A DNA stretch of 64,000 nucleotides from a virus (Duplodnaviria > Heunggongvirae > Uroviricota > Caudoviricetes): the IMG/VR virus record IMGVR_UViG_3300042321_000183, one strand, 5' to 3'. Made by a program: the position numbers and the translations under genes. Positions 8,907 to 48,668 of this stretch are shown here, piece by piece; within the stretch, counting starts at the first letter, position 1, and the number at the start of each line of letters is the position of its first letter. The notes under the pieces were generated by a model. The model had not been told where the DNA came from. It did not search any database and saw only the letters and a list, made by a program, of their open reading frames with translations.

Positions 8907-8930
8907 TTTTATTTCTTTATTTATTTATTA

Positions 8931-11160: not shown

Positions 11161-14100
11161 CTATCTATTTTGTTTCTGTATGGTTATGTCAAACTCTGTA
11201 GCAAACTCAGGGCTAAATATAGCTCCATAAGTTAAGAAAGATTTAGTTACAGGAGCTGCTTTCATTAAGTACTTGATAGGTCTTGCTTTCTTTCTAGCTT
11301 CTTCATCTGTTGTGCTTGGATCAAAGTCCATGCCTGTTGTTTCTATAAAGAAGTGTCTTGTAAACTTAGTTACATCATCTAATAGACCAATTGCTGGGAA
11401 GATGCTACCACTAGCTAGCTTTTGTACCTCAGCAGGATTGTAGAAGAATGAAAGCTCACCTACAAATCTATCAACTACCTTTTGACTATATCTATGGAAG
11501 TTTCTAGAAGCTCTATCTCCTTCATCATCATCTGGGGCCATTACACCAAGAGCAAGCATTGCTCCAAACAAAGATAACAAGATAGTTAATTCCTTAAGCT
11601 GGTTACGTAAGTTGTTTCTAACCATATCTATAAAGTCATCCTTAGACATAGTCATTTCTTCACCAGTTCTTTTTTTGAACTCCTGAGCGTATTCAAAGAA
11701 CATTCTATCAAGCTCTGCAATACCAGCATCATTCATAGCAAGAATGTCCTTAATATAATTACTACGTTCCATTATAGATCTTCCTAATACAGAACCTAGC
11801 AGACGAAGCCTACCAATATCATAACTTTCTCCTTCTATACCTTCTTCTCCAAACTCTACAGAGAAGTCATTTGATACCTTTCTAAATTCAGAGAAACGTG
11901 TATCAGCAAGTTTAGGAATCCATCTTTTAAATACCATCATACTAGCTGTCCAAATAGACATACCCATTCTGTTCATGTTTTCCTTGCTAGTATTACCAGT
12001 TGCTGCTTCAGATAGACGTCTACTTAATAACCCCAGTCTTTGTAACTCTTTCTTGTTGCTTAGATCCAAACCAGGGATGACTAACTTGCCATCTTCCATC
12101 TTTGATGTAACAGCAATAGATTTGTCTTTCTTTAACTCCTCTATCTCCTTCTCTATCAAAGGTTTAGTTTCTCTATATCTAGCTTGACTAGAGTTACGAT
12201 CTTTATATTTGTTTTTTACATATTTAGGAATACTCACAATCTTACCATCTACCACCATTGTGTTTTCTAATAATGTAAAGAAGGTTGCCTTTTCTGCATG
12301 TTGTTCAGGATACTTCATAAAGATCATTAACATGTCTCCTAGATTGTTCTGAGTTAATGTAGTTAAACCTGCTTTCTTAAATAGCTCATAAGAAGGGTCT
12401 TCTGAAAGAGGTAAGAATGTATTAAGTAGTTGAACAAACTTTTCTTTATCACCTACATTTTGTAATAAAAGCTTTGCTTCATTCTTAGCAAACTCTCTAG
12501 CTTTGAAGTATTCTCCTGCTTGTGCAGCCATCTGAATGTTTGTACCAAATGCATTGACAGCACCTGATAAAAACTCAAGACCAAGAGTCTTTATTTGGAA
12601 TCCTCTATTCATAGCATCCATGGTTTTAATCATAGATGTTGCTGACACTTCTTCATTTGGTTTAAACACTTCTCTTCCAGCTATAGAGTTAACTACACCT
12701 TTCATACCATTTACCACCTTGCCAAAGTACAAAGGAGTGTCAGTATCAGATAGTACATACTTTTGTTCATAGAAGACAGCTCTTGTAAACTCATCTAAGG
12801 TCTTCATGTTTTCAGCGTTACCTGTCATCACCTTAGGTTCACCATCATCATCCAATACAATATTACTCACTCTATCCACAGCAAGGTGAGCGTTCTTAAA
12901 TTCTTCAATTGTACTTAAGAACTTAACTTGTTCTTCTACCTCTGTTAGATATTTGTATTTATTAATCTGTTGGATGTACAAAATCATGTTCTTAAATAAG
13001 TCTTCACTCACCTCAGAATAATCATTTACACCATCTGTATTTGTAAAGTCATATGTATAATACTTAGGTATAGAGTTTTCCATCTTACCTGTAATCTCAT
13101 CAAACTTACCATATCCTACATCATCAGGATTAATCTTTAAGCTTTGATAGAAGTTTTCCATTACAGATAACTTACCATCCCAAACAAGACTCTCTGCCAT
13201 TGTTTTTCTAACAAATGGTAAGAAGAAAGAAGATATAGAGTTTTGAATAAACCCTTCATCTTTAGCTTTTTTATTAGTCTTACTAATGAAGTTATACAAT
13301 GCAAATAGATCTGGATCATTCTTAATGTCCTTATACTCAGCTGATTCCCACTTACTTAAAGGATGGTTTTTAATGATGTAGTTGTTCCAACCATTAAAGT
13401 CCTTTCTAGTTATGTCATACTTACGACTCTCTTGAATAATTGCTTTCTCTCTTTTCTCTACAATCTCTGGACTGTTACCAGGGAAGTCATCATTGATACG
13501 CTTAAGATTCTTTTCTAACACAGCATCAGCTTCTTTCTTATATGCTTCTATATCAATGTTATTTTTAAGCCAAGTTATATCTCCTCCTGCTGCAGCTCTG
13601 GCATCAACCTCACTACGAAACTTTTCATCATATTTGTAGATCAGTCTGTTTATCCATTGTCCCTTCTCATCCTTTTGATATACCTTTTTGATAGTTTGTC
13701 TGATATCACCACCTCTTTTAACAAACCTCTCTCTGATCTCCATTAGCTCTTTAATCTCTTCTAAGGAATCAGCATTAGCATTGCTTCTAGCTTGTCTATT
13801 TAATTTAGCAAGTACGTTCAAAGATCTTTGTCCAAGGTCTTCTACACCTCTAAAGTTAGCAGCCAATCCTTTTGTAACAACCTCAGGTTTGGTTAATCCT
13901 GTTGTTAAGTTTCTTTGACCTATATGTTTATCTGCAAACTTAAAAGCAATGTCAATAAGCTCTTGCTTAGACTTGTAGATGTTCTTAGCTTCCTTTTCAA
14001 GGTTAGCTCTTAATTCTCTTAACTCAGTAAGTAACTTTTTATCTTCATCAGTCTTAGCGTCTATTTCCATCTCAGGACTATATATAAGATCACCAATCTC

Positions 14101-16395
14101 AGCATCAACTCTATCAAAGATTTCAGCAGTCTCTATATAATTTCTTAACTCTCCTGCAAACTCAGACAGTTCTTTATTAGTAGAGTCTTCAGAAGAAGCA
14201 TCTCTATCTTTGAATATAGTGTCATATGTATTGATGATTTGCTCTCCCTTAGCTCTAGTTGTTAGAATTACATTGATTAATTCAGCAATGTTTCCTGTTC
14301 CTTGTGCAAGACGAATGGCTCTCTTAAGTTCTCTCATACGAGCATACTTAAATTGACGCTCTTCCTCTTCAGCTTTCTGACCAGAAATACGCTCGTATAG
14401 AGTATTTAACTTTGCCAAATACTTATCAAGTTTTTCATAACCAGTAGACTCTGTCTTTTCAGATACAGGAAGTAATCTTAAGTCTGTAATCTCTTTTGCA
14501 TTTACAGAACCCACTGCTATACCTTTTATAACATTCTCAGATGTACCATCTGGTTTGTTCTGTGTTTCCATCTTCATCATTATAGGAATAGCTCTAGTCA
14601 TACCAAAGCTCTTAACTCCATAATAGTTACGTAAGATGTCTTTGTAAGTTCCTAACTGTATATCATATGCCCCTTGTTTAAAGAACGCTACATCTTCTGA
14701 ACCTTCTGCAAACTGCAAGAACTTCCAGTCTAGTATATGCGTTTTACCATCTGGCTCAATTGCTAAGAAGTCAATTGTACCAGCTTCTTTATCTTTAGGA
14801 TTGTATATAATAACCTCAGCTCTAATGATTGTACCCTCTGGGAAACTATCAATTAATTTTACATAATAGTTTTCAAGAAGTTGATACATCTGTTTAGTCT
14901 CTAAGTTAAATGTGCTTGGAGCATCTACAGGTTTTACTCTTCTTGTACCATCTTCATTATAGTATCTATGATGGATATCCTCAAGATCTTGGTGTCCTTT
15001 AACACCAAACTTTCTTTTTAGTTCATTGAACTCTTTCTCTTGTTTAGTAAACACCTTACCAGGAAACTTCTTTTTATACCAAGCCTTTACTCTGTCAGTA
15101 ACTCTCTTGAGTACTCTTTCAGTTGTACCATCAGGTTTCTGAGCTTGATAAAAGTTACTTGCTTCTTCTGAATCTAATAGAATAGGATCTACCTTTTCTT
15201 GATCTTCATAAACCTTAGTTATAGTATTCTTAGTTTGATCTAAGCTATCTGTAATTTTTTTCTGAGCATCAGACAATTGGAAGAATATACCTCCTTGTTT
15301 GATGTCAGCTATATCACCACTGATATCTCCTGATCCTATCTGAGAAGCTACCTCTGTAAATATATCAATGTTTGCTTTTCTATACATTCCATTAATGAAA
15401 TCAAGAATAGCATTCCATAGGTTTCTTACAAAAGATTGATTAATTTCTTCTCTTAACTCAGGGAACTGATCTGTGTTCTCCATTTGGTTAACAATCAGTT
15501 CAGTTATTAACTTATCTACAGCCTCCTTCTTTATCTTACGAATGTCAGGTTTGCTATTAGGAAGTGTATAAGTGTCTTTGTATGCATCATATGTTTCCTT
15601 GTAGATTTTAAATCTATCTATCTTAGAAATCATTTGAGTAATTAATCCAGGGTTGGTTTGTTCTATCATAGCTGTAGCTATGTGTACCATCTCCTCTGTT
15701 AATGCTTGTCCTTCTTGTTGATTAGCTATGGCTATGACACCTCTAGTAAGGTCAGCTAATGCTGTCTTACCTTTTACATCAATGTCTGTGTTTTTTGCAT
15801 ATTCATATAAGTCTTCTATGCTAACACCCATTTTAGCAAGCACTTCTTTTATCTTAGCCACAGTCTGTGGAGAAGCAATAGAACTTGCCATGTTCTTATC
15901 TTGGAAATAAACATTAGTAGGATCAAAGCTATACTTAATCCCTCCTTCAACAAACTGTACATTAAATGCACCAAGTGATTCAAGTTCTTGTCTTCTTGCT
16001 GTCTTACGTGCTACCACTCCCTCTCCACTAGGAATAGCTTCTGTTCTTACCTGTGTATTATCATATCCACCCTTGTCAATGGCAAATGATCCTTCATTAA
16101 GTACAGACTTAAATTGATTAGGTCCAGGTGTTACTATATCTGATTGAAATTTATCACCATTTACTATTAATGGTTCACCATTTTCATCAACTACTTTAGA
16201 ACCTTGCTTTCTTTCCCAATCACCAAACCAGTTCTTAAATGAACCAGTGTACACCTGTGCCCATAGACGTAAGGCTTGCTCCTTGTCTTTTACAAGATCT
16301 TGCAGAGTTTTATATAGAGTAGAAGGCTGCCCATTAGGAGCTTCTACTCTTTCAATTACACCATCATCATTTCTAAATACTTGACATTCAGCCAT
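11161..16395 (-). CDS. Large virion/ejected (cargo-type) protein, 1744 aa
   Basis: One uninterrupted ORF sits 12 nt downstream of the giant gene. It is coiled-coil rich. A hydrophobic segment LTILLSLFGAMLALGVMAPDDDEG near the C-terminus suggests one TM helix. No catalytic motif was recognised. Confidence 0.6.
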   Translation of the reverse strand: MAECQVFRNDDGVIERVEAPNGQPSTLYKTLQDLVKDKEQALRLWAQVYTGSFKNWFGDWERKQGSKVVDENGEPLIVNGDKFQSDIVTPGPNQFKSVLNEGSFAIDKGGYDNTQVRTEAIPSGEGVVARKTARRQELESLGAFNVQFVEGGIKYSFDPTNVYFQDKNMASSIASPQTVAKIKEVLAKMGVSIEDLYEYAKNTDIDVKGKTALADLTRGVIAIANQQEGQALTEEMVHIATAMIEQTNPGLITQMISKIDRFKIYKETYDAYKDTYTLPNSKPDIRKIKKEAVDKLITELIVNQMENTDQFPELREEINQSFVRNLWNAILDFINGMYRKANIDIFTEVASQIGSGDISGDIADIKQGGIFFQLSDAQKKITDSLDQTKNTITKVYEDQEKVDPILLDSEEASNFYQAQKPDGTTERVLKRVTDRVKAWYKKKFPGKVFTKQEKEFNELKRKFGVKGHQDLEDIHHRYYNEDGTRRVKPVDAPSTFNLETKQMYQLLENYYVKLIDSFPEGTIIRAEVIIYNPKDKEAGTIDFLAIEPDGKTHILDWKFLQFAEGSEDVAFFKQGAYDIQLGTYKDILRNYYGVKSFGMTRAIPIMMKMETQNKPDGTSENVIKGIAVGSVNAKEITDLRLLPVSEKTESTGYEKLDKYLAKLNTLYERISGQKAEEEERQFKYARMRELKRAIRLAQGTGNIAELINVILTTRAKGEQIINTYDTIFKDRDASSEDSTNKELSEFAGELRNYIETAEIFDRVDAEIGDLIYSPEMEIDAKTDEDKKLLTELRELRANLEKEAKNIYKSKQELIDIAFKFADKHIGQRNLTTGLTKPEVVTKGLAANFRGVEDLGQRSLNVLAKLNRQARSNANADSLEEIKELMEIRERFVKRGGDIRQTIKKVYQKDEKGQWINRLIYKYDEKFRSEVDARAAAGGDITWLKNNIDIEAYKKEADAVLEKNLKRINDDFPGNSPEIVEKREKAIIQESRKYDITRKDFNGWNNYIIKNHPLSKWESAEYKDIKNDPDLFALYNFISKTNKKAKDEGFIQNSISSFFLPFVRKTMAESLVWDGKLSVMENFYQSLKINPDDVGYGKFDEITGKMENSIPKYYTYDFTNTDGVNDYSEVSEDLFKNMILYIQQINKYKYLTEVEEQVKFLSTIEEFKNAHLAVDRVSNIVLDDDGEPKVMTGNAENMKTLDEFTRAVFYEQKYVLSDTDTPLYFGKVVNGMKGVVNSIAGREVFKPNEEVSATSMIKTMDAMNRGFQIKTLGLEFLSGAVNAFGTNIQMAAQAGEYFKAREFAKNEAKLLLQNVGDKEKFVQLLNTFLPLSEDPSYELFKKAGLTTLTQNNLGDMLMIFMKYPEQHAEKATFFTLLENTMVVDGKIVSIPKYVKNKYKDRNSSQARYRETKPLIEKEIEELKKDKSIAVTSKMEDGKLVIPGLDLSNKKELQRLGLLSRRLSEAATGNTSKENMNRMGMSIWTASMMVFKRWIPKLADTRFSEFRKVSNDFSVEFGEEGIEGESYDIGRLRLLGSVLGRSIMERSNYIKDILAMNDAGIAELDRMFFEYAQEFKKRTGEEMTMSKDDFIDMVRNNLRNQLKELTILLSLFGAMLALGVMAPDDDEGDRASRNFHRYSQKVVDRFVGELSFFYNPAEVQKLASGSIFPAIGLLDDVTKFTRHFFIETTGMDFDPSTTDEEARKKARPIKYLMKAAPVTKSFLTYGAIFSPEFATEFDITIQKQNR

Positions 16396-16406: not shown

Positions 16407-19400
16407 TTATTGTTTTTTACAGCCTTTATCTTTCTTATTTAATACGTCATCTATTTCTGAAGCTTCAACAGGAGGAGTCTTTTGACCACCTATGAATACT
16501 GATTTAATAGTATCATCACTAACCTCATCTACCTCTATGAACCCATTATCAATCTTAGACTTGTTAGCAAAGTCATAGAACTCATTAGCTCTAAAACTAT
16601 CACCCCAAGCATTGATGGCTTTGTAGACAATGAATGTATATCCTGATCTGTTATATGTAATTAAAGGATCAATACCATCATCTATCACTTTCTTAAATAA
16701 CCCTTTCTTAATAAAAGAGAAATCTGATGCTTTGACCATCTCTGCTCTTGTCTTTCCTGCAGGTATTTCTTCCCAACTATATACAATGATATCCTTAGTG
16801 CTCTCTCTAGACAATGTTGATATCTTAATAACTTGAGGTATCTTCTTATCTCTCATTGCAATATTTGCACCAGTGTTTAAGATAGTTAATGCATTATTAT
16901 CATATCTAGTCTTTAACTTACCATCTTTTTGCTTCTCTGTTTTCCATTGTGCTTTCTTGTGAGGAACAATTTCATCATCATTCCAGTTGTTTCTTTCAAA
17001 AACATTCAATGTAGCAAAGTCAGCTAAGTTAGGTAAAGTTTCTAACTTGGACAAAATATCATTGTATTCTTCTACAAAGTCATCATAAGGAATAAGAGAA
17101 GTGAAAGATATAGCAGATGTAGATAAACCAGATTGTAATATAGAAAGCTTTACCAACTTCTTATACAAAGGAAGATCACCTGTAGACTCCATATAGTTTC
17201 TCAACTCTTCAAAGCCATATATAACTTTGTTTTGATCATATACTTTGTTATCCTTACCTGGCATGTAAAGATTATTAGGACGCTCTTCTTCTGTTCCTGC
17301 AAACTTAGGAGCCAAAGAGTTTACAATAACATTGTTATGTAAAACGTGCTCAGGATCATTTTTAATATCATTAAAATAATCTGTAATCTGTTTTGCTGTA
17401 CCATCTTTAGATAATAGGTCTCTCTCCATATTGATCTTAAATGTAGGATTGATTTGCACAGCCCAGTCAAAAAGATCATTAACAGCTTTTCTAGCCACCT
17501 TAACAAACTGTCTATCGTTCAAGTTAACGTAAGGTCTTAGTACGCTTTGAAGCACACCTCTTACCCTTCTTGTATCAGAAGTCAAAGCTGTCTGACCAAT
17601 AGCATTTCTACTATCACGTAATCCTATTCTAACTCTACCTATGAAAGATTTATTTAATAAGTTATCTACAGAAGATATAATAGTTTCTCTAGCTTGAGAT
17701 AACTGCTCTTCTTTCTTAAAGATTAACATTGGGTCATTGAACGCTGTTGTATCAAAGTTAGATCCTTGTACCACTTTAAACAATTGATTAGCCATCATGC
17801 CATACTTCAAGAACTCATTTAATATGAATTGTTGTTCAGCTTTTCCAGCAACATCAAAAGACTTCTTACCTATGTTCTTCTCAAGAGCAGCAACGTTAGG
17901 AATACTATTCAATCCTTGTACCTTACTTGGGTCCACCTTATATTTCTCAGAGTCTTTAATAGCAGCTACAGTTGAGTCATTAAATAACCAAGTGTATCCA
18001 CTGTTTTCTAACTCACGTACATAATCACGAATGATTGGTTGGTTCATAAAGTAGGCAACTTCTTTAATTGGAACTCCAATCTTAACTAAGAACAACCATG
18101 TAGGAGCTACATTAGGACTTGCACCTAATTCCATAATCCAAGGACCCTTAGCAATATCCACATATCCATCAATAAACTGACCAATGATATCAGATATGTC
18201 ATATTTATTGTTAGCATCTTTAATACCAGAAAGACTAGGCACTGTTCTACCACCAACCCTCACTGTATTATATTTGCTAAAGTTAACATTAGCATCTCCT
18301 AACCACTTCTGATCAGACTTGCTTAATTTATACATCATTGATTTATCAACATACATATTAGAACGTTGGTTCTGAGCATGATTAGTTTGAGCTACAGCAG
18401 CAAGACCAATTGCATATTTACCACGTACAAATGCCTGTCTAAGTCTAGACATGAATATTTGATTCAACATATTGTCAGTGGAAGAATAATCAAATGAACC
18501 AAGACCTAACTTGTCTGTAATATCAATTGACATATCTTTTAACACTTTAGCATTGTTTGGTGTAACTAATCTAGTGTAGTTAGCCTCACTTCCAATAATG
18601 TTTTCTAAAGACTGAATGTATTGGTTCTCAATAGACTTCTTGTATAATAGATTGATTATTTGATCTTTAGCTTTGATACCTCTAGTAAATTCCTGTGTTA
18701 ATTCCTCTTCATTAATAAGACCATTTAAGTTTCCAACTATTGCTGTAATTAACTTACTTGCATTAGACTTCTCTTCAATCAAGTCTTCCAACATGATTTG
18801 TTCTTCTGCTATGTATCTGTCAAGCTCTTGTAATTGTTCTTTAGTTAAGAACTCTCCTTTGTCAAACATTTCTTCAAACTTCTTGATAGCATCCTTGCCC
18901 ATTCCAAAGTATGGAATCAACTTAGGCTTACCATCTTTTCCTTTGTAGATGTTCTTGAAATACATAGATAACTTATCTATATCAAAGTCAGATCCAACCT
19001 TCTGAACTAACGCAGCTGGTACAACAACAGAGTCACCAAACTCCTTAGGAAGAAACTTAGCTATCTTAATTACATCCACAGAGTTTTGCTTCTGTGTAGG
19101 TATACGAAACGCTACACCCTTTAATAAAGCTTGACCTTCATCTGTAGTGTTTAAATATTTTAATAAGTCCTCATCAGACATATCACTATCAAACCATCTT
19201 CCTACCATCACCTCAGCTACACGCTCTCCACCTTTCTCATAAAACTTTAATACATCTGACTCAAACAATCCATTCTTTCCTACAGGTCTTACTGATTCAA
19301 ATCCTGTAGAAGGAATCTGTACTTTTAATCCACCATTAATCTTTGGACGTACAATGTTCTTATCCACTATAGAATAAAGAATGTTTCTCACTTGACTGTA

Positions 19401-22400
19401 CATAGGGCTAGCTTCAATTAAAACTTGACCTTTCTCAAAGCCCACAAGTGCAGCCACTATATTGCGATTCACTTCTCTTTTGAATAACTCAGAACGTAAT
19501 GTTTGAGCAATCTTCTCAGGATCTACAATCTCAAATCCTGCTTTGGTTTGTTTAATACCTAATCTATCAAGAAGGTTTTTATAACCAATATCAGTCATTT
19601 CCTCTAGTAAGTCTTGGTTCTCCAATATCTCTTTGAAGAATGGAGATGCATTAGCCATAGCTGTTTCATCTTCTAAGTTTTCCCAAGCTTCTAAACGCTT
19701 GTTAAAATCTTTCTCATCAGACATGAAGTCAAAAGGTACACCAGCTTGTAAGAAGTCTAATGTTACCAATTTGGTAATCTGAGAACCTCTTGTTACAAAA
19801 GCCTCATCCTTAGAAGGCACCTCAGACTGTACACTTATAATACTAAATGGTATATTAATCTTATCTGCATCTGCAATAGGAGCATCATTAAAGTTACCCT
19901 TGCTATCATATAATTTAACTAATACATCAGCCCCCACCTTTCTACCACTGTCAAATACAGCGTAGTCAATCTTATCTTTCTGCATCTTGTTGTATAACTT
20001 GATAGCATTTGAATCTTTATTAATCTCATGTAACACTCTGTAACTCAATGGATAAAGGGCAAACTTATCTAATACAACATCATTGTAAGATTGTTTACTC
20101 ATCTTAGCCCCAGCTACAACTGGTTTCAATGGAGTGTATGCACTCTTTACTTGAGGATTGCCTGCTTCTAATAAATTTGATTCATTAGGAGAAAGGTCCT
20201 GACCCTTGTCTCTTTTCTCAAAAGCAACATCATATCTGTATTGTCTTTCCTCATTAGGGTTCCAATTTGAAGCACGTATTCTAAAGTTGCGATATGCTTG
20301 CATACTAATCATACCACCACCATCTGTTTCAGTGAATGATGAATACTCTTTAGCAAATCCTTCTACATCTGCTACACCTTTGACATCCTCTAATGTGATG
20401 GTTTTGAAATAGTCAGCTGTGAAGTCAGTGTATCCAAGATCATCAATATCTGTATAGTCATCATTATATACATTATTCATTACAGCATTTAAACCTGCTG
20501 AACCATATATGATAGCCTGACGTGGAGATAAAAAACTCTTAATACGCTTCAATTCATCTTTGTAGAAATATGGATCTGAGTATACAAGTTTATGTAACTC
20601 TATGTTATTAATCATATAGTTAACAGATAAGTACTTGATATTCACATCAACATCATTCTCACTTAAAGATCTTTTCTTTTCAAATTCCACTCCATTAAAG
20701 TTAAAACCATTCTCATCTTCAGAAAGAATATTGTAATTAGAATACACAGCTTTTCTTCTCTCAATATCCTTCTTAACAAATGCGTCTATAGCAGTGTTTA
20801 TTCTTGATTCAAAGTGTGTGTAAACATCCTCAAGAGATTTCTCTTTGCTTGGATCATATGATACAATATCTTCATGTAATGATGGTCCTAATATATTCTT
20901 GAAGAAACGCAGGTCTGTAGACTTTCTAGTCTCGTTCTCATCTTGTACAATCTTACGACCTTCTCTAGAAACAGCTAACTCTGACAAGAAGTATCCTTTA
21001 AATACTTTATGTATTGAGCTATTGTCTTTCTTTAAACTATTTAATGTAACTGTATTACCTACATAGTTTGCCCAGTCCAAAGAGGCATCTCCTGGAACAA
21101 GGTTCATATAGTATCCTGCTAGGTTAAGGTTTAACTCTTCCTTCAAACGCTCACTAGGTGTAAGACTAGCTGGGTCTTTTCTTTTGCCAAGACCCTCATC
21201 AATCATACCACCTGCATACGCTGTGCTTAATATCTCATCACCCTTAGGTAATTTGTTTCCTGAATCTTTATCAAATATCTTGTCCATGAATACAGAACCA
21301 ATGTTAGCAAAGTTATCTGTAAGTAAGTATTCATATCTAGAGCCAACTAATTGTTTCTTATTGCTTATCTTAGTTAAGAAATCACGTAAGCTACTAATAG
21401 CATTACCACCTATGAAAGACTGTACTCTATCACCTTCAAGGTTAAAATATGTACTTTCAAAGTCAGGATTTTGAATCTTAGCAAGCATGTCAGCAATCTC
21501 CTTAACTCTACCTGCAGTGTTAATTGTCTTACTAGAAATAAACTTAATCTGCTCAGCTTCTAATAAGTTCTTCTTTATACCAGCAACAGCTTTGTTAAAG
21601 TCAGATTCAAAGCCAAGTCTTCTAATCATTCTAATAGGAACATCCACTCCTAAAGACTTCATAAATAATACACTTCTTTCTAATGATCCTAACTGTTGAT
21701 TCTCAATGTTCTTCTTAATAGCTACGTACATTTTGTTAGGAGCATCATATCTATAGTACTTTCCTAAGTTCTTTTGTATAGAGCTAATGATACTGTTTTC
21801 CATATCAATAGCAATTTGCTTAGATGCTGTGCCTACAGACATATCAGTTGTCACTACAGTTCCATCAGGAGCTGTGTACACTGTAACCACGTCAGGAGCT
21901 TGTCCCTTCATTACATTGTAGAAAGAAGTAACCAGTTGAAGATCTGCATCAGTTTTTATATTAGCATAAGGATTCAACTTCTCAGAAGAAGGTTGTCCTG
22001 TAAGTCTTTGGTATATTACACCATATTCAGGTTTTTGAGACTCTACAAACTCACGTAGTTTTTCCATCATATCATCTACTGTATCTGAGTTGTATAAAGC
22101 ATTCTTAAGGTCTATATACACCTTGCTCATTGGTATTAATCTAACACCATTGATTGAAGAAAGTGTTCTTTTACCTCTTGCATTTCTGTATGGAATGGTA
22201 GCTAACAATAATTTAATAGCAGCGTTAGCCTTCTTAAACTTGTCTATTTTCTCTGACTCTTGATAGTCTCCTCTACCTGTATTGTTCTCATTTGTTGTTT
22301 GAGTACTGTCATTCTCATCAAATTCAATAGAATAAGATAATAATTGTTCTTCAAAGATTTGAGTTATCTCATCCCAGTTTTTATCTATGATTGCAAACAA

Positions 22401-25400
22401 CTGCTCAGCTTTTGCTACCTCAGGAGCTACATCTTCTTTTGTAGCAATACCTTCTTTCATTAGTTTAGCAGCAATGTTCTTAATCTTATCTACAACTGTA
22501 TACTTAAGATTATCTTTAGCTTCTTTATATATTACAGCTCTGTTCTTAGCAGGGATATCAAATAGGCTTTGATTAGTAGCAATAAGATTTGTAAGAGTAG
22601 AATAGGTCATTTGTTGAATAGTATCATGTACTTGTTCTCCTGTAAGACCATTAGCAATTAAACTATACTCACTAGTTGGGTCGCCTATAGCATCTTCAAC
22701 ATCAATAATACCAGGTTTAGCTAATGCTAACTTAGACTGATATGGAGATGCGTTCTTATAATAACCTTCTCCTATTCTCTTAAATAACTCTTCTGTGTTT
22801 CTTGCAGCTTGAGGACCTAAGAAATATTCCTTAATAAAGTTTGCTAAATCAGTAAATAACTTAATGATGTAAGGTCTACCATCAGCAGGCTTAGGTGGAA
22901 CTTTCTTATCTAATACATATTCTCTAAACTCTTCTGCTAGTTGTTCCTTGATTTGACCAGGAGTTGCTTCTGAGTATTTAACTTCTTGTCCTGTAACTCT
23001 ATCTACAAAGCTGCCCTTTCTATTCTTGAATTCATTTACAATAGCCTTGCGTTCCTTAGGGTCAGAGAACATATTCCAGATAGCATGAAACACTTCATGA
23101 TATGTTGTCCCAGCCTCTGCATTAGTGTATACATAGATAGCACCATTCTTATACATACCCCAAGCCTTTCTTCCCCCTGTAGCTTTGATAACATTCTTCA
23201 CTCTATATACAGGAACGTTAGGTAGATTAGCTCTTAACCATTGTTCTAACTTCTTCCAGTTTTCAGATTTGAATGTCTTTATTTCATTCTCTAATATCTC
23301 ACGTAAGTCTCCATCTTCATCTTCTAATAATGCTTCTTTTATAGCACCACTTCTTACACTAGGGCCCTTTGTTGTAATTTGTGCTGGTGCCTTTTCTTCA
23401 ATCTCTATTACTACATCATCTGCATCTGTTTCATCAGGTATTGCAAAAGCTTCTTCATCTTCTTCTACAGCAGTTGCCTTCTGTACAGGTACATTTAAGA
23501 AGTTAGCAATAGGAGCTTTTAAAGCTCTTCCCATATCTTCCTTCTTAACATTTGCAGCAATTAAAGCTTCCTCAGCTTTAGCTAAGTCTTCTCCTTTTAA
23601 TATCTTAATACCATTATCAATATCTCCTTTAGCCAATAAATTACGATTAGCTGTGAAAGCTATTCTAGTTCCCTTTGGAGTAATAAATATATTCTTAGTC
23701 TTACCATCTAATACAAACTTTGAACCAGTCTTAGTTTCTATTGGAGCTTCTTGTGTTTCTCCTACAGTAAATGTTTCTTCTTCTGCAGAAACAGGTGTTG
23801 CAGCTGTAGGCTTAATGCCACCAGGAACAACAGTCTTAGGCACAGTTCTAACTATCTCTGTAATAGTAAAGTTGTCAGCAGCATCGCTAAGTGTAAAGTA
23901 TACACCCTCTCTATTAGTATCTTCAGGAGATTCTAACGCAGTAATATCAGTAAACAAAGGAATCTCATCAGCTGTTCTTCCCTCATCTGATAACAAATAT
24001 GTTTGATAGTTTTGCCATTCTTTTGTTTGTGGAATACCATTCTCACCAATACCTATGATTTCTTCATATGTTAAATTATATTCATCTGTGTTTTGTACCT
24101 TTCTAGCATTAACATTATTGTACATGTTTTGTAGAAGAGTGACAATTGCATCTTTCTGAGTTTCCATTGCTTGTGGTGTAAAAGAAAGACTCTCTCCTTT
24201 ACCAGAGAAGAACAATCTTAATTCACCATCTGCTCTCTCAAACCATATACTATTATAACCAGGGTCTTTGCCTTCTTTAGGTTTGCCCCAGAATGTAACA
24301 CTTCTTAACCAGTCAATTAAATATTCACTTCTAGCTTCTACACCACCATCATCAAACACATTGTTAGATAATTGATTAAGAACCTCATAGATAGTTTCAG
24401 CTTCTTTAGTATTGAACAGTCTGTTCTTTAACTTAACATAAGCATTATCTAATACTAAGAATATTCTACCAAGCACATCTGTAAACTCTGTGCTTCCTTT
24501 ACTAATATCTTTTGCAACAGTAGGCACTTCAATTAACTGCTTTTCAACTAAGTCTTTGTCTTCAATTAATCCAGCAGCCTTTACAGACACAGCAGCACTT
24601 GGATCAGTAACCTTCTTACCATCAGGTAATGTAATACTAACTCTAGTAGGTCTTCCAAAAGAAGGAGTGATTGATTGTAATCTAACAGCAGGATCTTTTA
24701 ATGTTTCATTTCTGAAAGCAATGTATTGATCTTTTAACTCTTTTCTAGTTTGCTCAGGTGTGTTGCTTCTGAACATTGTTTCATTACCAAAGTCAGGACC
24801 CCATTGTAAACTCTCGTCAGGCATTACTTGGAATACAGCATTCTCTAACTTATCTTGGCCTTCTGCAAGAGGTTGCCCATCTTGACCTACCAATACAAAG
24901 TTACCATTGCCTTGATCCTCAACCATTACTAATGCAATAGTTTTTGTTGGATCTATGTCTGTATTGTTGTTCTGTAAATATGAAGTAAGTCCTGGTATAA
25001 TGTTGTCTTCATTTGCAGAAGTAACTAAGACACCAAATATATTATTCTTATTAGGGAATGAGTTGAACTTATTACCAAAGTAATTTGCACGTGCATAGCC
25101 TAATATATTCTTACTAGCAACAGTAGATGTAACTAATATCTTTGGACCTTTCTTAGAAGTAGGTTCGTACTTAACACTATATGGAGTATTGTCTAATTGT
25201 TCCTTACTTAATGTACCAATAACTGCATTAATAAGTTTACCATCACTCTTTAACTTTTTCTCTTGTTCTTTCTGTAACTTATAAGCTTTAGCAACATCTT
25301 GAAATCTAGTTAAAATTGCTTCTCTAGCTTTTAAGTCTTGCTCATATTCCTTTAACTGATCTTGTAAACCTTGTAACTCTTCTCTTAATTCAGCAACACT

Positions 25401-28400
25401 GCGTTCATTAGGAGTTACATCTAACTCATCAATATTGGCAAGATCTCTTTCAAACTCAATTAAGTCTGACATTAATTCAGGGTTATTTCTTCTAACTTCT
25501 GGATTAGCATTCAAATATTCTTGTAAAGCTAATGGAGTGTAAGGTAAGTTTGGATATTTAGCTTCAAACTTCTTAATCAGATCTAATGCCAAATCTACAG
25601 CAGTATCTAAAGCTTTCTCAACATTAGTTAAGAGCTTAGACAAAGCATTAATATTTTTACCAGTATCTAATATTAAATCTTCAACAAGAGACTTTTGTTC
25701 TTTTAATTCATTGATAAAGTCTTCACTTTCTGCAGGAAGCTCACCTATATTCTGAACCATGTCAGCAATGTAAGCTTGTGTAAACTCAAGTTCTTCTTGT
25801 TGAGATTCTAATTCTCTAATCTCATCAATTAACTTATCTCTTAGTTTAGATAATTTACTTGCAGCTCTAAGTGCGTTGGCTGTGGTTTTTTTGAACGCAT
25901 TCTTCTTAGTCATCTCACCAGCCTTAAGCTTGGTTTCAACATTAGTAAGATCGCCTGTTATCTTCTCAAGTTCATTGTATTTTTGTTCTAATAACTTTTG
26001 TGTAGACATTAGCTTTGATGATGTTTCATCAAACATGTCATTTAGTATTTTTAATCTAGCTTCTCTTTTAGCAGAAAATTTTGATTCTTTTAAACTAACA
26101 AATTCATCTAATGCTTGTTTTTGAATTGGTGTAAGTTCACCAACAGCCATAATCATAGGAACATCATATCCTTCTTGAGCTACAAATTGACTACCTGTAA
26201 CCTCAATAGATTTAATCTTTCCTTTAGTGTCTCTGTACACAAAGTTTAATACTCCATCTTTAGGGGAGTATTCTAATCTACCTTTAACTTTCTTACCTTT
26301 ACCAAAGTTAAATTGAAACACAGTGTTACTATGTTCCATATAGTATTTGGCTTTTTTATTATTTAAAGTGTCTGACACTTTGCCTAATTTATAGCCAGCT
26401 AATTCTTCTTTAGAGATGTCTCTTACAACACCATTAGAATCCTTAATCTTAATAGTACCATCTTCATTTTCTCCAAGGATAGTTAATCTTGGAAATCCAT
26501 AAACCTCATTACCATCTTTGTCATACTTAACAGTTCTACCTAAGTAGTATTCTGTATCTACTTCAATATCTTCTTCACCATCCTTAGTCTTAACTTTTAC
26601 AGTTTCTTTCTTTGGAGCATCTTTATCCATAGTTTCTGCAGTGTCATACTTACTAGGATTGTTCTTTATATCATTATATTCAAACAAGAAGTTGTCTCTA
26701 CGCAAAGCAAGCTCTGCAACATCTTCTAATGTCTGCATTAATTCATCTTCATTAATAGACTTTGATGCCTTAATTTTTTCAACAGCTGCTATGTAAGAAT
26801 CACTGTCTCCATTAGTTAAGTCATTAACAACAGTAGTAGTATCAATACCTACAGCATCTAACACTGTCATTAATTGAGGAAGTCTTTCATCATAGTCTGC
26901 CACCTTAGTTGCAGCATATATCATCTGATCCATCACCTTTGGTGAATAGACAGGCTTACCATCAGCATTTACTAACCCACCATAACGTACATCTAATGAT
27001 TGATATAATGATTTAATGTTCTGAGCAGTAACTTCTAAGTTAGCTAATCTTTGTAGATATGCTTCTTTAGTATCTGTATCTAATGCCTTACCTTCTGATT
27101 GTAACTGTGCAAATCCCTCATCAGTCATTGCTAGAGTTTTATACTGAGCAATGTCGCTTTGAACAAGATCAAATCTACCATACTTAATACGAGGAGTTAG
27201 ATAGTTGATTATGTAATCACGCTCTAAGTCTTTGCTCTCTAGAATATCACCTCTTCTTATTGCTGTTTCTCTTTCCTCTTGTATAGTTGTACCTCTATTA
27301 ACAGATCCTTTAACTTCTTTAGAGAAGTCAGACAAGATAGCATTATTAAATTCTGTAATAGCAGCTTGTGTATTCTTTGACTTTTCTTTTGCTTCACCAA
27401 ACTTACCAGGACCTAACATTAATGCTCCAGACAATCCACCAATAAGTATGTTCTCCATACCCTCATTAGTAGTTAATGTTTCACTAATTCCTGCAGCAAC
27501 ACCATCTAACCAATTAGTTGGTTCGTTGTTATATTTCTTATTGTAATAGTTTTCTGTAGATTTGCCAATTGCGTATTGTGCACCTTCCTCAAATGCTTCT
27601 GAAGCAGAGAAGGTATATGGTCTCACCTTATTTAATGTAGATAAGATTTTTCCAAATCTATTAGGAGCTGCTATATATTTACCAGTAGCGTCTGTTGTAA
27701 TTTCACCAATTTCTTTTGTAAGAGAATTAACAATCCCTTTCTCCCCTTTGTATGTAGCTCCTAGTATTTTAGGAAACTGAATATAGTTAGTAGCAGTTAA
27801 TAAACCAACGTTTGCAAAGTAAGAAGAATTACCCACTTCTTCAGAAAGTTGATTAATCTTTAACAGATCTTCTCCCATAGGAGCTTGACCACCATTTGCT
27901 TCTTTATATTCTTCAATCTTTTTATTTCTAAAATCATTAAGCGTATGGTATGCTTCAAAGCCAGCCTCACCCACTGTACCTAAAGCTGCAACAGTAATTC
28001 TACCTCCTTGACCTAATGAGCTATAAGATGATAAAAACTTATCAGAAAGTCCTTTAAGTTTACCATAAGTAGAAGCTGCTTTATCTGCAGCAAGCAATGC
28101 TTCTTCTGAAGCAGCTAAAGCTTGAGCACCCTTACCCACTGAGAACAGTCTAGCTGTAAGAGGGATTGATTTTAGAGCAGCAGCATATGCTCCTCCTGAC
28201 AATGCAGCACCTGCAGCAAAGCCTAAGTTTTTAACAACTCCATCCCAAATAAAGTTAGCACTAAATAACTTACTTGGAGAATACCAATCTTGTTCTCTTT
28301 CTCCTGCTTTATAATAGTTAGGCATTATGTTTTCAGAAGCCTTTACAACTTCCTCATCTAAAAACCTATTCATGTCATTATCATAAATATCTGCAAATCT

Positions 28401-28844
28401 TCCAGAGTTTGCAAAGTTAGCTAGACCATTTACTAGTCCTACAGTAGATTGTAAGAAAGTAGTTCCTGTAAGAACTAAACCTTTACCTACACCATTAACC
28501 ATTTTACTAGCCCAACTTTGACTTTGAGCATAAGCATCTTCATTATTATAATCACCAGGCATGAAGCTCTTATATCTATCACTACTTACCTCTGTTAAAG
28601 TTCTATCAATGCCACCTGCCATCTTCTTACCATCATTTCTACCTGCAGTTAATACAGCATTCTCAAGAGCACTTAATGCAGTAGGAGTAGGTTCTCCATC
28701 CATCATAGGAATACCAGTTCCTTCGTATTGACTTCGCAAGCTTTGATAAGGAACACTTGCAGGTCTTTCAGGAAGTTCAGTAGGTGTATAATCATTCAAT
28801 GATGAATCTAATAATGCCCTGTCTATTAAAGGAGTATCTGCCAT
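16407..28844 (-). CDS. Giant 4145-aa protein. Candidate fused cargo protein / virion RNA polymerase with zincin-like HExxH and DxDxD motifs
   Basis: It is a single 12.4 kb ORF. HEVFH lies at residues ~1916-1920 (nt 23085-23099) in the context TTYHEVFHAIWNMFSDPKERKAIVNEF. DFDID lies at residues ~3286-3290 (nt 18975-18989) in the context VGSDFDIDKLSMYF. The start overlaps the upstream stop as TAATG. Confidence 0.6.
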   Translation of the reverse strand: MADTPLIDRALLDSSLNDYTPTELPERPASVPYQSLRSQYEGTGIPMMDGEPTPTALSALENAVLTAGRNDGKKMAGGIDRTLTEVSSDRYKSFMPGDYNNEDAYAQSQSWASKMVNGVGKGLVLTGTTFLQSTVGLVNGLANFANSGRFADIYDNDMNRFLDEEVVKASENIMPNYYKAGEREQDWYSPSKLFSANFIWDGVVKNLGFAAGAALSGGAYAAALKSIPLTARLFSVGKGAQALAASEEALLAADKAASTYGKLKGLSDKFLSSYSSLGQGGRITVAALGTVGEAGFEAYHTLNDFRNKKIEEYKEANGGQAPMGEDLLKINQLSEEVGNSSYFANVGLLTATNYIQFPKILGATYKGEKGIVNSLTKEIGEITTDATGKYIAAPNRFGKILSTLNKVRPYTFSASEAFEEGAQYAIGKSTENYYNKKYNNEPTNWLDGVAAGISETLTTNEGMENILIGGLSGALMLGPGKFGEAKEKSKNTQAAITEFNNAILSDFSKEVKGSVNRGTTIQEERETAIRRGDILESKDLERDYIINYLTPRIKYGRFDLVQSDIAQYKTLAMTDEGFAQLQSEGKALDTDTKEAYLQRLANLEVTAQNIKSLYQSLDVRYGGLVNADGKPVYSPKVMDQMIYAATKVADYDERLPQLMTVLDAVGIDTTTVVNDLTNGDSDSYIAAVEKIKASKSINEDELMQTLEDVAELALRRDNFLFEYNDIKNNPSKYDTAETMDKDAPKKETVKVKTKDGEEDIEVDTEYYLGRTVKYDKDGNEVYGFPRLTILGENEDGTIKIKDSNGVVRDISKEELAGYKLGKVSDTLNNKKAKYYMEHSNTVFQFNFGKGKKVKGRLEYSPKDGVLNFVYRDTKGKIKSIEVTGSQFVAQEGYDVPMIMAVGELTPIQKQALDEFVSLKESKFSAKREARLKILNDMFDETSSKLMSTQKLLEQKYNELEKITGDLTNVETKLKAGEMTKKNAFKKTTANALRAASKLSKLRDKLIDEIRELESQQEELEFTQAYIADMVQNIGELPAESEDFINELKEQKSLVEDLILDTGKNINALSKLLTNVEKALDTAVDLALDLIKKFEAKYPNLPYTPLALQEYLNANPEVRRNNPELMSDLIEFERDLANIDELDVTPNERSVAELREELQGLQDQLKEYEQDLKAREAILTRFQDVAKAYKLQKEQEKKLKSDGKLINAVIGTLSKEQLDNTPYSVKYEPTSKKGPKILVTSTVASKNILGYARANYFGNKFNSFPNKNNIFGVLVTSANEDNIIPGLTSYLQNNNTDIDPTKTIALVMVEDQGNGNFVLVGQDGQPLAEGQDKLENAVFQVMPDESLQWGPDFGNETMFRSNTPEQTRKELKDQYIAFRNETLKDPAVRLQSITPSFGRPTRVSITLPDGKKVTDPSAAVSVKAAGLIEDKDLVEKQLIEVPTVAKDISKGSTEFTDVLGRIFLVLDNAYVKLKNRLFNTKEAETIYEVLNQLSNNVFDDGGVEARSEYLIDWLRSVTFWGKPKEGKDPGYNSIWFERADGELRLFFSGKGESLSFTPQAMETQKDAIVTLLQNMYNNVNARKVQNTDEYNLTYEEIIGIGENGIPQTKEWQNYQTYLLSDEGRTADEIPLFTDITALESPEDTNREGVYFTLSDAADNFTITEIVRTVPKTVVPGGIKPTAATPVSAEEETFTVGETQEAPIETKTGSKFVLDGKTKNIFITPKGTRIAFTANRNLLAKGDIDNGIKILKGEDLAKAEEALIAANVKKEDMGRALKAPIANFLNVPVQKATAVEEDEEAFAIPDETDADDVVIEIEEKAPAQITTKGPSVRSGAIKEALLEDEDGDLREILENEIKTFKSENWKKLEQWLRANLPNVPVYRVKNVIKATGGRKAWGMYKNGAIYVYTNAEAGTTYHEVFHAIWNMFSDPKERKAIVNEFKNRKGSFVDRVTGQEVKYSEATPGQIKEQLAEEFREYVLDKKVPPKPADGRPYIIKLFTDLANFIKEYFLGPQAARNTEELFKRIGEGYYKNASPYQSKLALAKPGIIDVEDAIGDPTSEYSLIANGLTGEQVHDTIQQMTYSTLTNLIATNQSLFDIPAKNRAVIYKEAKDNLKYTVVDKIKNIAAKLMKEGIATKEDVAPEVAKAEQLFAIIDKNWDEITQIFEEQLLSYSIEFDENDSTQTTNENNTGRGDYQESEKIDKFKKANAAIKLLLATIPYRNARGKRTLSSINGVRLIPMSKVYIDLKNALYNSDTVDDMMEKLREFVESQKPEYGVIYQRLTGQPSSEKLNPYANIKTDADLQLVTSFYNVMKGQAPDVVTVYTAPDGTVVTTDMSVGTASKQIAIDMENSIISSIQKNLGKYYRYDAPNKMYVAIKKNIENQQLGSLERSVLFMKSLGVDVPIRMIRRLGFESDFNKAVAGIKKNLLEAEQIKFISSKTINTAGRVKEIADMLAKIQNPDFESTYFNLEGDRVQSFIGGNAISSLRDFLTKISNKKQLVGSRYEYLLTDNFANIGSVFMDKIFDKDSGNKLPKGDEILSTAYAGGMIDEGLGKRKDPASLTPSERLKEELNLNLAGYYMNLVPGDASLDWANYVGNTVTLNSLKKDNSSIHKVFKGYFLSELAVSREGRKIVQDENETRKSTDLRFFKNILGPSLHEDIVSYDPSKEKSLEDVYTHFESRINTAIDAFVKKDIERRKAVYSNYNILSEDENGFNFNGVEFEKKRSLSENDVDVNIKYLSVNYMINNIELHKLVYSDPYFYKDELKRIKSFLSPRQAIIYGSAGLNAVMNNVYNDDYTDIDDLGYTDFTADYFKTITLEDVKGVADVEGFAKEYSSFTETDGGGMISMQAYRNFRIRASNWNPNEERQYRYDVAFEKRDKGQDLSPNESNLLEAGNPQVKSAYTPLKPVVAGAKMSKQSYNDVVLDKFALYPLSYRVLHEINKDSNAIKLYNKMQKDKIDYAVFDSGRKVGADVLVKLYDSKGNFNDAPIADADKINIPFSIISVQSEVPSKDEAFVTRGSQITKLVTLDFLQAGVPFDFMSDEKDFNKRLEAWENLEDETAMANASPFFKEILENQDLLEEMTDIGYKNLLDRLGIKQTKAGFEIVDPEKIAQTLRSELFKREVNRNIVAALVGFEKGQVLIEASPMYSQVRNILYSIVDKNIVRPKINGGLKVQIPSTGFESVRPVGKNGLFESDVLKFYEKGGERVAEVMVGRWFDSDMSDEDLLKYLNTTDEGQALLKGVAFRIPTQKQNSVDVIKIAKFLPKEFGDSVVVPAALVQKVGSDFDIDKLSMYFKNIYKGKDGKPKLIPYFGMGKDAIKKFEEMFDKGEFLTKEQLQELDRYIAEEQIMLEDLIEEKSNASKLITAIVGNLNGLINEEELTQEFTRGIKAKDQIINLLYKKSIENQYIQSLENIIGSEANYTRLVTPNNAKVLKDMSIDITDKLGLGSFDYSSTDNMLNQIFMSRLRQAFVRGKYAIGLAAVAQTNHAQNQRSNMYVDKSMMYKLSKSDQKWLGDANVNFSKYNTVRVGGRTVPSLSGIKDANNKYDISDIIGQFIDGYVDIAKGPWIMELGASPNVAPTWLFLVKIGVPIKEVAYFMNQPIIRDYVRELENSGYTWLFNDSTVAAIKDSEKYKVDPSKVQGLNSIPNVAALEKNIGKKSFDVAGKAEQQFILNEFLKYGMMANQLFKVVQGSNFDTTAFNDPMLIFKKEEQLSQARETIISSVDNLLNKSFIGRVRIGLRDSRNAIGQTALTSDTRRVRGVLQSVLRPYVNLNDRQFVKVARKAVNDLFDWAVQINPTFKINMERDLLSKDGTAKQITDYFNDIKNDPEHVLHNNVIVNSLAPKFAGTEEERPNNLYMPGKDNKVYDQNKVIYGFEELRNYMESTGDLPLYKKLVKLSILQSGLSTSAISFTSLIPYDDFVEEYNDILSKLETLPNLADFATLNVFERNNWNDDEIVPHKKAQWKTEKQKDGKLKTRYDNNALTILNTGANIAMRDKKIPQVIKISTLSRESTKDIIVYSWEEIPAGKTRAEMVKASDFSFIKKGLFKKVIDDGIDPLITYNRSGYTFIVYKAINAWGDSFRANEFYDFANKSKIDNGFIEVDEVSDDTIKSVFIGGQKTPPVEASEIDDVLNKKDKGCKKQ

Positions 28845-38445: not shown

Positions 38446-38455
38446 TTATATTATT

Positions 38456-38890: not shown

Positions 38891-38911
38891 ATTATTTTAT
38901 TTTATATTATT

Positions 38912-45371: not shown

Positions 45372-45377
45372 GTTCTT

Positions 45378-45854
45378 TTATTTTTTCCATTCACAATAAA
45401 TGTGTTGGTATTTATCATCTGTTTTTATGTAATGTGACAGCAATCTAGAAGTGGTACGAGAAGGTTTGAAATACCAAAGATTTATATTACGAATCCTAGT
45501 GGACTCTTTAAACCACATCCAACCAAAAAAGAATCCCTCTGTATGAAAGTTGAAGTTGTAGATGATTTTTCCCTTTTGTTTTGTCTTCTGCCAGTCTACT
45601 GGTAGGTTAACCACTTCTTTTCCATCAACTGTCTTTGTTTTCTTTCTCTTCTTTTTATTGATAGAGAACTCACCAAAGCCAAAAGGAAGTCTTGCTTTCT
45701 CTCCTGTTTCTAGAATGTAGTTTTTAAAATTGTCATTATATAAATATATAATGTTTCGCCACTCATCAAATGTAATTTTTATGGTGGGATGTTTCTTACA
45801 AAAGTTACTGTAGTTTTCTTTACTAGAGCTTCTCCAGTCTATCTTAGTACGCAT
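45378..45854 (-). CDS. Hypothetical 158-aa basic protein
   Basis: The ORF is separated from neighbours by 6 nt and a 1-nt overlap. It is Lys/Trp rich. Confidence 0.5.
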   Translation of the reverse strand: MRTKIDWRSSSKENYSNFCKKHPTIKITFDEWRNIIYLYNDNFKNYILETGEKARLPFGFGEFSINKKKRKKTKTVDGKEVVNLPVDWQKTKQKGKIIYNFNFHTEGFFFGWMWFKESTRIRNINLWYFKPSRTTSRLLSHYIKTDDKYQHIYCEWKK

Positions 45855-47940: not shown

Positions 47941-47954
47941 AGTTAGAGTTTAAA

Positions 47955-47985: not shown

Positions 47986-48016
47986 AGACCATCTGTAAAC
48001 CAACAAACAGGGGTTT

Positions 48017-48646: not shown

Positions 48647-48668
48647 ATTATTGATTTGTTTGGTTTAA

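Follow-up and report, generated by a model that had tools for sequence, protein, structure and literature searches.

The window analysed here is a 64,000-nucleotide stretch of a Caudoviricetes virus (IMG/VR record IMGVR_UViG_3300042321_000183), and the gene in question is a single open reading frame (ORF) on its minus strand, which encodes a protein of 4145 amino acids (aa) and is flanked by genes for other large proteins of 864, 958, 1055 and 1744 aa (Table 1). The ORF begins with ATG, uses the standard genetic code, and contains no stop codon of any kind. The first-pass annotation of this DNA, made from the letters alone, had described the uninterrupted ORF and its large neighbors, and had located in the protein an HEVFH motif followed by NEF, as well as a DFDID motif; the translation and the ORF list bore this out, with both motifs at exactly the positions given and with NEF at aa 1937-1939. 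Because the protein contains 14 histidines (0.34%), 0.004 HExxH motifs would be expected by chance, which does not explain the presence of this motif. The DxDxD pattern is expected 1.4 times and seen twice, which is insignificant alone; the significance of DFDID comes from homology. As described below, the 4145-aa protein of this environmental crAss-like phage is very probably a cargo polyprotein, packaged in the virion, injected into the host and composed of three fused modules.

The gene belongs to an operon of structural genes. Pfam matches above the cut-off were obtained for the crass capsid, both tail-barrel ring proteins and the muzzle (Table 1), and a P22-like portal gene is also present in the window. 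All these genes are located upstream of the 4145-aa gene and in the same orientation. The Pfam matches to Crass_capsid, CrAss_Ring_1, CrAss_Ring_2 and crAss_MUZ identify the window as that of a crassvirus (Crassvirales-type phage), and the crAss-like layout that had been proposed from the sizes of the genes was thus found in the same operon. The muzzle gene is followed by a 288-aa gene, then by the genes for the 1055-, 958-, 864-, 4145- and 1744-aa proteins, and then by collagen-like fibers. No close relative was found in the phage collection when the window was searched by megablast, and the capsid protein matched a single phage of this collection, with 26% identity; the relatives of the window phage are metagenomic.

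Table 1. Features of the 4145-aa gene and of related genes in the window; residue numbers are those of the 4145-aa protein unless stated otherwise.
Feature	Coordinates	Strand	Residues	Basis or remark
Whole gene, very probable virion cargo polyprotein	16407..28844	-	1-4145	gp47/gp67-like module + HExxH domain + two-barrel RNA polymerase
N-terminal module	23895..28844	-	1-1650	Homologue of phi14:2 gp67 and crAss001 gp47; BLASTP
Linker	23295..23894	-	~1651-1850	Variable, gappy, acidic, Pro/Ala-rich; module boundary, candidate processing site
HExx[H/E] domain	22545..23294	-	~1851-2100	Zincin-like by homology (metallopeptidase-like), homologous to C1 of N4-type virion RNA polymerases
HEVFH motif	23085..23099	-	1916-1920	
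Weakly aligned segment	22002..22277	-	2190-2281	Aligned to gp66 217-319; low confidence
Predicted RNA polymerase core	18024..21029	-	2606-3607	Two double-psi beta-barrels, connector, bridge helix, trigger loop; BLASTP, AF2, Foldseek
DFDID, predicted catalytic metal-binding motif	18975..18989	-	3286-3290	Alignment with gp66 1361-1365
Bridge-helix equivalent	18372..18464	-	3461-3491	Aligned to gp66 bridge helix, 1529-1559
Trigger-loop equivalent	18084..18200	-	3549-3587	Aligned to gp66 trigger loop, 1598-1636; conservation 0.75
C-terminal region	16410..18023	-	3608-4145	Family-conserved; position matches gp66 1657-2180
Cys4142 codon	16419..16421	-	4142	Only Cys of the protein, ...DKGCKKQ, four residues from the C-terminus
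Downstream 1744-aa cargo protein	11161..16395	-		Position of gp65/gp49; proposed partner of Cys4142
Cys4 codon of the 1744-aa protein	16384..16386	-		MAEC..., its only Cys
Muzzle, crAss_MUZ	38912..44473	-		PF25731, E 7.6e-30
Ring 1, CrAss_Ring_1	44400..45371	-		PF24228, E 1.4e-8
Ring 2, CrAss_Ring_2	45854..46591	-		PF25702, E 6.4e-17
Capsid, Crass_capsid	58087..59640	-		PF23898, E 1.3e-27

The comparison with characterized crAss-like phages showed which parts of the protein correspond to known cargo proteins. In the N-terminal module, aa 84-495 matched phi14:2 gp67 47-416 (BLASTP E 2e-10), and aa 109-730 matched crAss001 gp47 92-818 (E 1.5e-36). Further along the chain, aa 1863-2010 matched gp47 2097-2231 (E 1.9e-10), which carries HEAFH at 2157, and aa 2841-3292 matched crAss001 gp50, which carries DFDVD (E 1e-12). 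These matches indicate that the 4145-aa protein is equivalent to gp47 plus gp50, or to gp67 plus an extra domain plus gp66, which supports the suggestion of the first-pass annotation that it may be a natural fusion of several cargo proteins. Since HEAFH is located near the C-terminus of gp47, the order of modules in crAss001 is identical (N-terminal module, HExxH domain, RNA polymerase), while the chain is split after the HExxH domain and gp47 is encoded on the opposite strand. The order of the gp67-like part, the polymerase and a large downstream protein is also the same in phi14:2, where, however, gp67 and gp66 are separate polypeptides. The window phage has a domain of ~250 aa with HExxH directly upstream of the polymerase, whereas in phi14:2 the HExxH motif (HEIMH 245) is in gp65 and there is none in gp66; Pfam searches with gp65, gp66 and gp67 gave no matches. 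The fused layout is found in gp26 of cr4_1 (Suoliviridae), a 4491-aa "hypothetical protein" with HEAFH at 2002 and DFDID at 3433 (BLASTP E 1e-12 and 1e-23). This phage differs from the window phage in that 38 TAG codons are read as sense, and gp26 contains six further internal cysteines. Mass spectrometry of crAss001 virions revealed gp47, gp49 and gp50, which have been modeled as cargo that exits partly unfolded through the tail, while phi14:2 gp65-67 are virion proteins injected into the host. Fusion of three cargo proteins in some phages has been reported in the literature, and RNA polymerase genes of up to ~6000 aa were named in a review as a crAss hallmark.

The N-terminal module is free of cysteines and partly coiled. 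A hydropathy analysis showed that it is Gly/Ala-rich and moderately hydrophobic at aa ~118-148 and 206-258, and charged and helical at aa ~900-1200. It is separated by the linker from a C-terminal part of 2296 aa, which is about the size of gp66. In an alignment of 27 giant proteins the linker had the lowest conservation (0.24-0.26) and the highest gap fraction, and it stood out as a clear variable stretch. Four stand-alone relatives (2417-2572 aa) start ~100-190 residues before the HExxH domain, that is at the position of the linker, and they can therefore be considered as natural split forms.

To place the protein within its family, a profile of the HExxH region was searched against 1.84 billion representatives. 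The search gave 1918 matches, including 262 at E <= 1e-30, and the top 150 consisted mostly of proteins that are 3500-5167 aa long and contain the domain around residue 1500-2300. For a set of 116 full-length giants, each a cluster representative with a Met start, DFD[IV]D present and the domain beyond residue 1400, the length was 4369 aa in the median, and the median distance from the beginning of the HExxH domain to the catalytic motif was 1460 residues. DFD[IV]D was found in nearly all giants of the family, and in all 116 by the selection criterion. The fused form is thus the commonest form in the family, giant fused forms have already been described in the literature, and the 4145-aa protein is an ordinary member of a known, very large family. 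The first-pass annotation had compared it with the characterized crAss-like polymerases of ~2200 aa, but for this family its size is typical.

Sequence comparison and structure prediction strongly support the assignment of aa ~2130-4145 as a single-chain two-barrel DNA-dependent RNA polymerase (RNAP) of the gp66/gp50 type, with DFDID as its predicted Mg-binding site. The phi14:2 protein gp66 (PDB 6VR4) is an experimentally proven virion RNAP, for which Mg-dependent, DNA-templated RNA synthesis was demonstrated and each of the three Asp residues of DFDID was needed for this synthesis. BLASTP aligned aa 2606-3607 of the 4145-aa protein with gp66 740-1656 (E 6e-31), and GSDFDIDK aligned on the identical GSDFDIDK, which places DFDID on the catalytic residues of gp66; equivalents of the bridge helix and the trigger loop were also aligned (Table 1). 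A tblastn search with aa 1769-4145 returned 138 phage records, mostly crAss-like by name, including phi14:2 g066, which is annotated as "catalytic RNA polymerase subunit". When searched against the PDB, a family profile of 53 sequences matched 6vr4_A over chain residues 169-1673 (E 1.4e-43); phmmer searches of PDB sequences with the whole protein and with aa 2549-3648 found nothing, in contrast to this profile. An AlphaFold2 (AF2) model of aa 2600-3650 had a predicted local distance difference test score (pLDDT) of 81.8 and a predicted TM-score (pTM) of 0.80, and its top Foldseek match was 6vr4_A (E 3.3e-27, query TM-score 0.67). The next matches were QDE-1 (E 1.2e-5) and plant RDR2 (ZmRDR2, E 2.8e-3), while the two-barrel polymerases of AR9/phiKZ and P23-45 gave weak matches (E > 0.1). 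This comparison of the predicted fold with gp66 and QDE-1 had been proposed as a check of the idea that DFDID is the Asp triad of a two-barrel polymerase, and together with the motif alignment and the profile match it strongly supports this idea. Among the 27 aligned giants the catalytic motif, the bridge helix and the trigger loop were the most conserved blocks (0.65-0.77).

Upstream of the polymerase core, aa 2190-2281 were weakly aligned with gp66 by hhalign (E 0.0017, Prob 15%), and the match of the 53-sequence family profile to 6vr4_A started at residue 169. The aligned region of gp66 overlaps its cleft-blocking domain (196-233), which suggests that this segment is a possible autoinhibitory element. 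In some relatives the polymerase protein also carries a NADAR domain (PF08719), as observed in four proteins and at 13154-15448 of the JGI locus 3300020048, and in one relative ART-PolyVal (PF18760) is carried by the downstream protein of 1901 aa. Effector domains of this kind are typical of "polyvalent" injected proteins.

It is conceivable that the long ORF consists of two or three real genes which only appear joined, owing to a sequencing error or to a recoded stop codon that is read through, as relatives exist in which the corresponding region appears as several frame-shifted pieces, and gp26 of cr4_1 contains 38 in-frame TAG codons. However, no stop of any type interrupts the 4145 codons, and the identical protein was found in 48 blocks of public assemblies and on at least 14 independent contigs that were read, of up to 111,698 bp. 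At all four displayed loci the identical protein is encoded between an upstream gene of 837-864 aa and, downstream, the same 1744-aa gene, a homologue with 99.4% identity has the same length, and the fused architecture is common to the 116 cluster representatives. The recurrence of the identical protein across contigs means that the ORF is not an assembly artefact; with a negligible chance of the contrary, this explanation was rejected and the ORF is confirmed as real. The broken relatives are ENA ERZ25039459 and the above JGI locus, in which the 864-like, 4145-like and 1744-like region is collinear and divided into many pieces with changing frames; this may reflect sequencing error, or disrupted RNAP genes as reported for zeta-group crAss-like phages. 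The protein could also be imagined as a structural tail component, similar to a tape measure and with a decayed polymerase-like domain, which would agree with its location within the structural operon and with the example of P23-45, where a two-barrel RNAP is fused to the tape measure. This was judged very improbable and rejected, because the polymerase blocks are the best conserved part of the chain, crassviruses have a short tail formed by a barrel of rings and muzzle, and gp66 and gp50, to which the protein is homologous, belong to the cargo. The assignment as a packaged and active polymerase has to be set against the low identity to characterized homologues (23-26%, with ~23% to gp66), against the fact that scans of the whole protein with Pfam and PHROGs gave no match, and against the circumstance that the argument for its packaging, ejection and transcription is an analogy with these homologues.

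To better understand the domain containing HEVFH, its conservation was analyzed in 139 sequences. H1916, E1917, E1967, G1896 and G1912 were invariant, while E1971, E1972 and E1938, the last of which is in NEF, were conserved in 96%, 94% and 95% of the sequences, respectively. Position 1920 was occupied by Glu in 69% and by His in 31%. In an AF2 model based on 27 sequences (core pLDDT ~90) HEVFH was located on a predicted helix (79-93), and the domain was mostly helical; the zincin fold, with a three-stranded sheet before the HExxH helix, was not recovered. Neither Pfam, including MPTase-PolyVal, nor PHROGs matched the domain, and the profile made from the HExxH alignment found nothing in the PDB. 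A diiron or hemerythrin-like reading of the HExxE/ExxH pattern was also considered, but was abandoned in view of the mere two His residues present in the domain.

The domain profile was then compared with the C1 domain of N4-type virion RNA polymerases (vRNAPs), which spans aa ~2124-2375 of N4 gp50 (coordinates in PMC13434306). A homologue search with the N4 C1 sequence gave one match only, and the alignment used here comprised 13 C1 domains of Schitoviridae vRNAPs, with 12 phage records used in building it. In this comparison hhalign gave Prob 96.1% and E 3.7e-9 over 145 columns, the reciprocal run was identical, and reversed and column-shuffled controls gave P values of at least 0.077. The HExxH-only and HExxE-only subsets of the family both matched C1 with 95-97%. 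HExxH of C1 aligned on HExx[H/E], ALNEFMAW on LAEEFRDY, and the next amphipathic helix on its counterpart. This alignment puts NEF of N4 on AEEF 1970-1973, and the candidate third metal ligands are E1938, E1967, E1971 and E1972. All 13 N4-type homologues retain HExxH, as opposed to the predominance of HExxE in the crAss-type. In both phage types the domain is fused beside a virion-packaged RNA polymerase, and in N4 this giant ejected protein is also free of cysteines. On the other hand, the T7-like single-subunit polymerase of N4 is unrelated to the two-barrel polymerase of crAss-type phages, and the domain follows the polymerase in N4 while it precedes the polymerase in the window protein. 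In an earlier analysis region 2130-2448 of N4 was unified with zincin-like metallopeptidases (MPTases) (HHpred P 4e-4) (Iyer et al. 2017; PMC5512222). The same paper notes that the N4 vRNAP is packaged unprocessed even though this region is needed for encapsidation. In a 2026 paper on the N4 structure the function of the domain was left open, and the C-terminal domain (CTD) that contains it damped the polymerase in vitro.

The zincin region of phi14:2 gp65 (HEIMH 245) aligned with P 0.04 to the crAss profile and with P 0.0012 to the N4 profile, with three landmarks in register, which is suggestive, and homology is not claimed. Comparisons by hhalign of the HExxH profile with single sequences of gp65, the N-terminus of gp66 and gp67 were not significant.

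The distribution of cysteines in the protein and its neighbors points to another feature of the cargo. The five genes between 11161 and 37579 (1744, 4145, 864, 958 and 1055 aa) contain four Cys residues in 8766 aa. By comparison, the Cys content is 0.7-3.3% for the genes of the muzzle, rings and tail (37579-56173), while Cys is again scarce in the portal and capsid genes at the far end. N4 gp50, gp51 and gp52 contain no Cys. The Cys-poor block thus likely marks the proteins that are ejected as cargo. The single Cys of the 4145-aa protein is near its C-terminus, and that of the 1744-aa protein is near its N-terminus (Table 1). In the 116 giants, 114 of all 220 Cys residues were within the last 12 positions, where ~0.6 would be expected. 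A Cys was present there in 113 of the proteins, and was the very last residue in 51; the other three giants comprise two truncated sequences and one protein in which Cys is found 13 residues from the terminus. The same C-terminal pattern was observed in an independent sequence set.

The two kinds of terminal Cys occur in consecutive cargo proteins of the reference phages as well. In phi14:2 the only Cys of gp67 is its last residue, gp66 has Cys3 and Cys2179 of 2180 residues, and the only Cys of gp65 is Cys3. In crAss001 the only Cys of gp47 is residue 2339 of 2341, gp50 has Cys5 and Cys2404 of 2412 residues in addition to Cys1334, and the only Cys of gp49 is Cys5. In cr4_1 gp26 has Cys4488 of 4491 residues, and it is followed by gp27, which starts with MICPN and has no other Cys in its 1632 aa. 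At five further loci, including the above JGI locus, the polymerase protein ends in Cys, and for the next protein (1424-2144 aa as called) the stretch read contains exactly one Cys, which is residue 3 or 4 (MATCPN, MTCNV or MTGCNV); at the JGI locus this protein is split by frame shifts and its first piece has 309 aa. C-terminal and N-terminal Cys are equal in number in all genomes examined. When a peptide bond connects two modules, neither of the junction Cys is present, as seen in the window protein, which has no counterparts of Cys2339 of gp47 and Cys5 of gp50 that flank the break in crAss001. The pairing is preserved even in crAss001, where gp47 is encoded on one strand and gp50 and gp49 on the other. 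These data suggest, as the simplest reading, that consecutive cargo proteins are linked by a disulfide or by another thiol-mediated link. The terminal-Cys pairing was not mentioned in the literature searched, the coverage of which is incomplete, so that an earlier description is possible; as far as could be checked, this pairing and the homology of the HExxH domain to N4 C1 are new. It was also observed that aa 25-78 of the 1744-aa protein (16162-16323 on the minus strand; WFGDW…ENGEPL) resemble phi14:2 gp66 17-70 (KFGDW…EDGEPL; E 8e-5). Because both stretches directly follow the N-terminal Cys, they may represent a junction or docking module common to the two proteins.

How far do these observations go toward a peptidase and a disulfide-linked chain? 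The claim that HEVFH marks a zincin was only partly upheld: the domain is folded in the model, strongly conserved and homologous to N4 C1, and is in this sense zincin-like, while its peptidase activity is putative. Weighing against a canonical zincin are the mostly helical model, Glu at position 1920 in the majority of relatives and the lack of a Pfam match, and the unprocessed packaging of the N4 polymerase casts doubt on a processing-protease role of the domain. It is quite possible, if somewhat short of probable, that the domain is an inactive but conserved module for packaging, docking or autoinhibition, shared by unrelated virion RNAPs, and that the protein acts uncleaved. The prevalence of HExxE, the need for this region in N4 encapsidation and the inhibition of the N4 polymerase by its CTD in vitro would all be consistent with this explanation. 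However, the invariant H1916, E1917 and E1967 and the nearly invariant E1971 and E1972 form the pattern expected of a metal or catalytic site, Glu is able to substitute for His as a Zn ligand, the occurrence of split and fused forms with the break at the linker agrees with processing, and the helical model is based on 27 sequences only. With regard to the cysteines, the argument for a disulfide is statistical, and the 1744-aa protein has weak homology to gp65 (E 0.003). The terminal Cys residues could instead attach the cargo to the portal, the capsid interior or the tail barrel, bind a metal, or carry a modification, which we consider rather unlikely. Since many structural disulfides are present in crAss001 virions, other partners exist, and the thiol pairing was assigned from sequence. 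Against these other roles speak the balance of C-terminal and N-terminal Cys in phi14:2, crAss001, cr4_1, the window and the five further loci, the loss of both junction Cys upon fusion, and the preserved pairing across strands in crAss001. Overall, we see an about even chance that giant cargo proteins of crAss-like phages are joined tail-to-head by disulfides between a C-terminal Cys and a Cys at residue 3-5, here Cys4142 and Cys4, and that, linked to this, the HExx[H/E] domain is a single homologous accessory module which was recruited independently by the unrelated N4-type and crAss-type RNAPs.

Several other genes in the window are worth describing. The 958-aa protein (31515-34391, minus strand) gave a weak glycine-zipper match (E 0.0011), and the N-terminus of the 864-aa protein (28844-31438, minus strand) matched a PHROG "virion structural protein" (E 7e-7). 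Both may be channel-forming cargo analogous to crAss001 gp45 and gp46, although BLASTP gave no match to these proteins at E <= 1e-3. Among the tail-barrel ring genes, a 416-aa protein (46591-47841, minus strand) matched PHROG 704 "DNA repair exonuclease" (E 5e-45) and had no Pfam match. Collagen-like tail-fiber genes are located at 6072-10991 and 50899-52797 on the minus strand (PHROG tail-fiber/collagen-like, E down to 3e-55), and the pair at 6-11 kb has a G+C content of 0.41-0.42 versus ~0.35 elsewhere. The region 1674-5616 is an opposite-strand block with two glycosyltransferases (GT2 and GT1) and DUF6445, with a 2OG-Fe(II) oxygenase on the minus strand; these are auxiliary or modification genes adjoining the structural operon.

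By analogy with characterized relatives, the 4145-aa protein would be made late and packed in the cargo zone of the capsid. At infection it would be threaded from N- to C-terminus through the tail and muzzle, partly unfolded and ahead of the DNA, and would then refold in the cytoplasm and transcribe early genes. The roles of the other modules are less certain: the N-terminal module may lead or anchor the ejected chain, and the HExxH domain may cut at the linker (aa ~1650-1850), remove an autoinhibitory segment, or serve packaging or regulation. The segment at aa ~2190-2281 would, hypothetically, be the counterpart of the gp66 region that overlaps the cleft-blocking domain. With a Cys4142–Cys4 disulfide, which is likewise hypothetical, the 4145-aa and 1744-aa proteins would form one thread of 5889 residues, to be split by reduction in the cytoplasm.

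To the giant virion RNA polymerases known from crassviruses, the 4145-aa gene adds an environmental example that is uninterrupted and uses the standard code. The presence of a homologous domain beside the unrelated polymerases of crAss-like and N4-type virions points to a shared role in packaging, ejection or activation. The nearly universal single terminal Cys residues offer a simple and testable answer to how several huge cargo proteins could be ordered and pulled through a channel of <50 Å and later separated. If the proposed pairing is true, the result would be the same whether the genes are split or fused: a continuous thread of ~6000 residues, which would be packed and extruded through the tail in a fixed order and released by the reducing cytoplasm without a protease, and the near-total absence of other Cys residues would prevent wrong cross-links.

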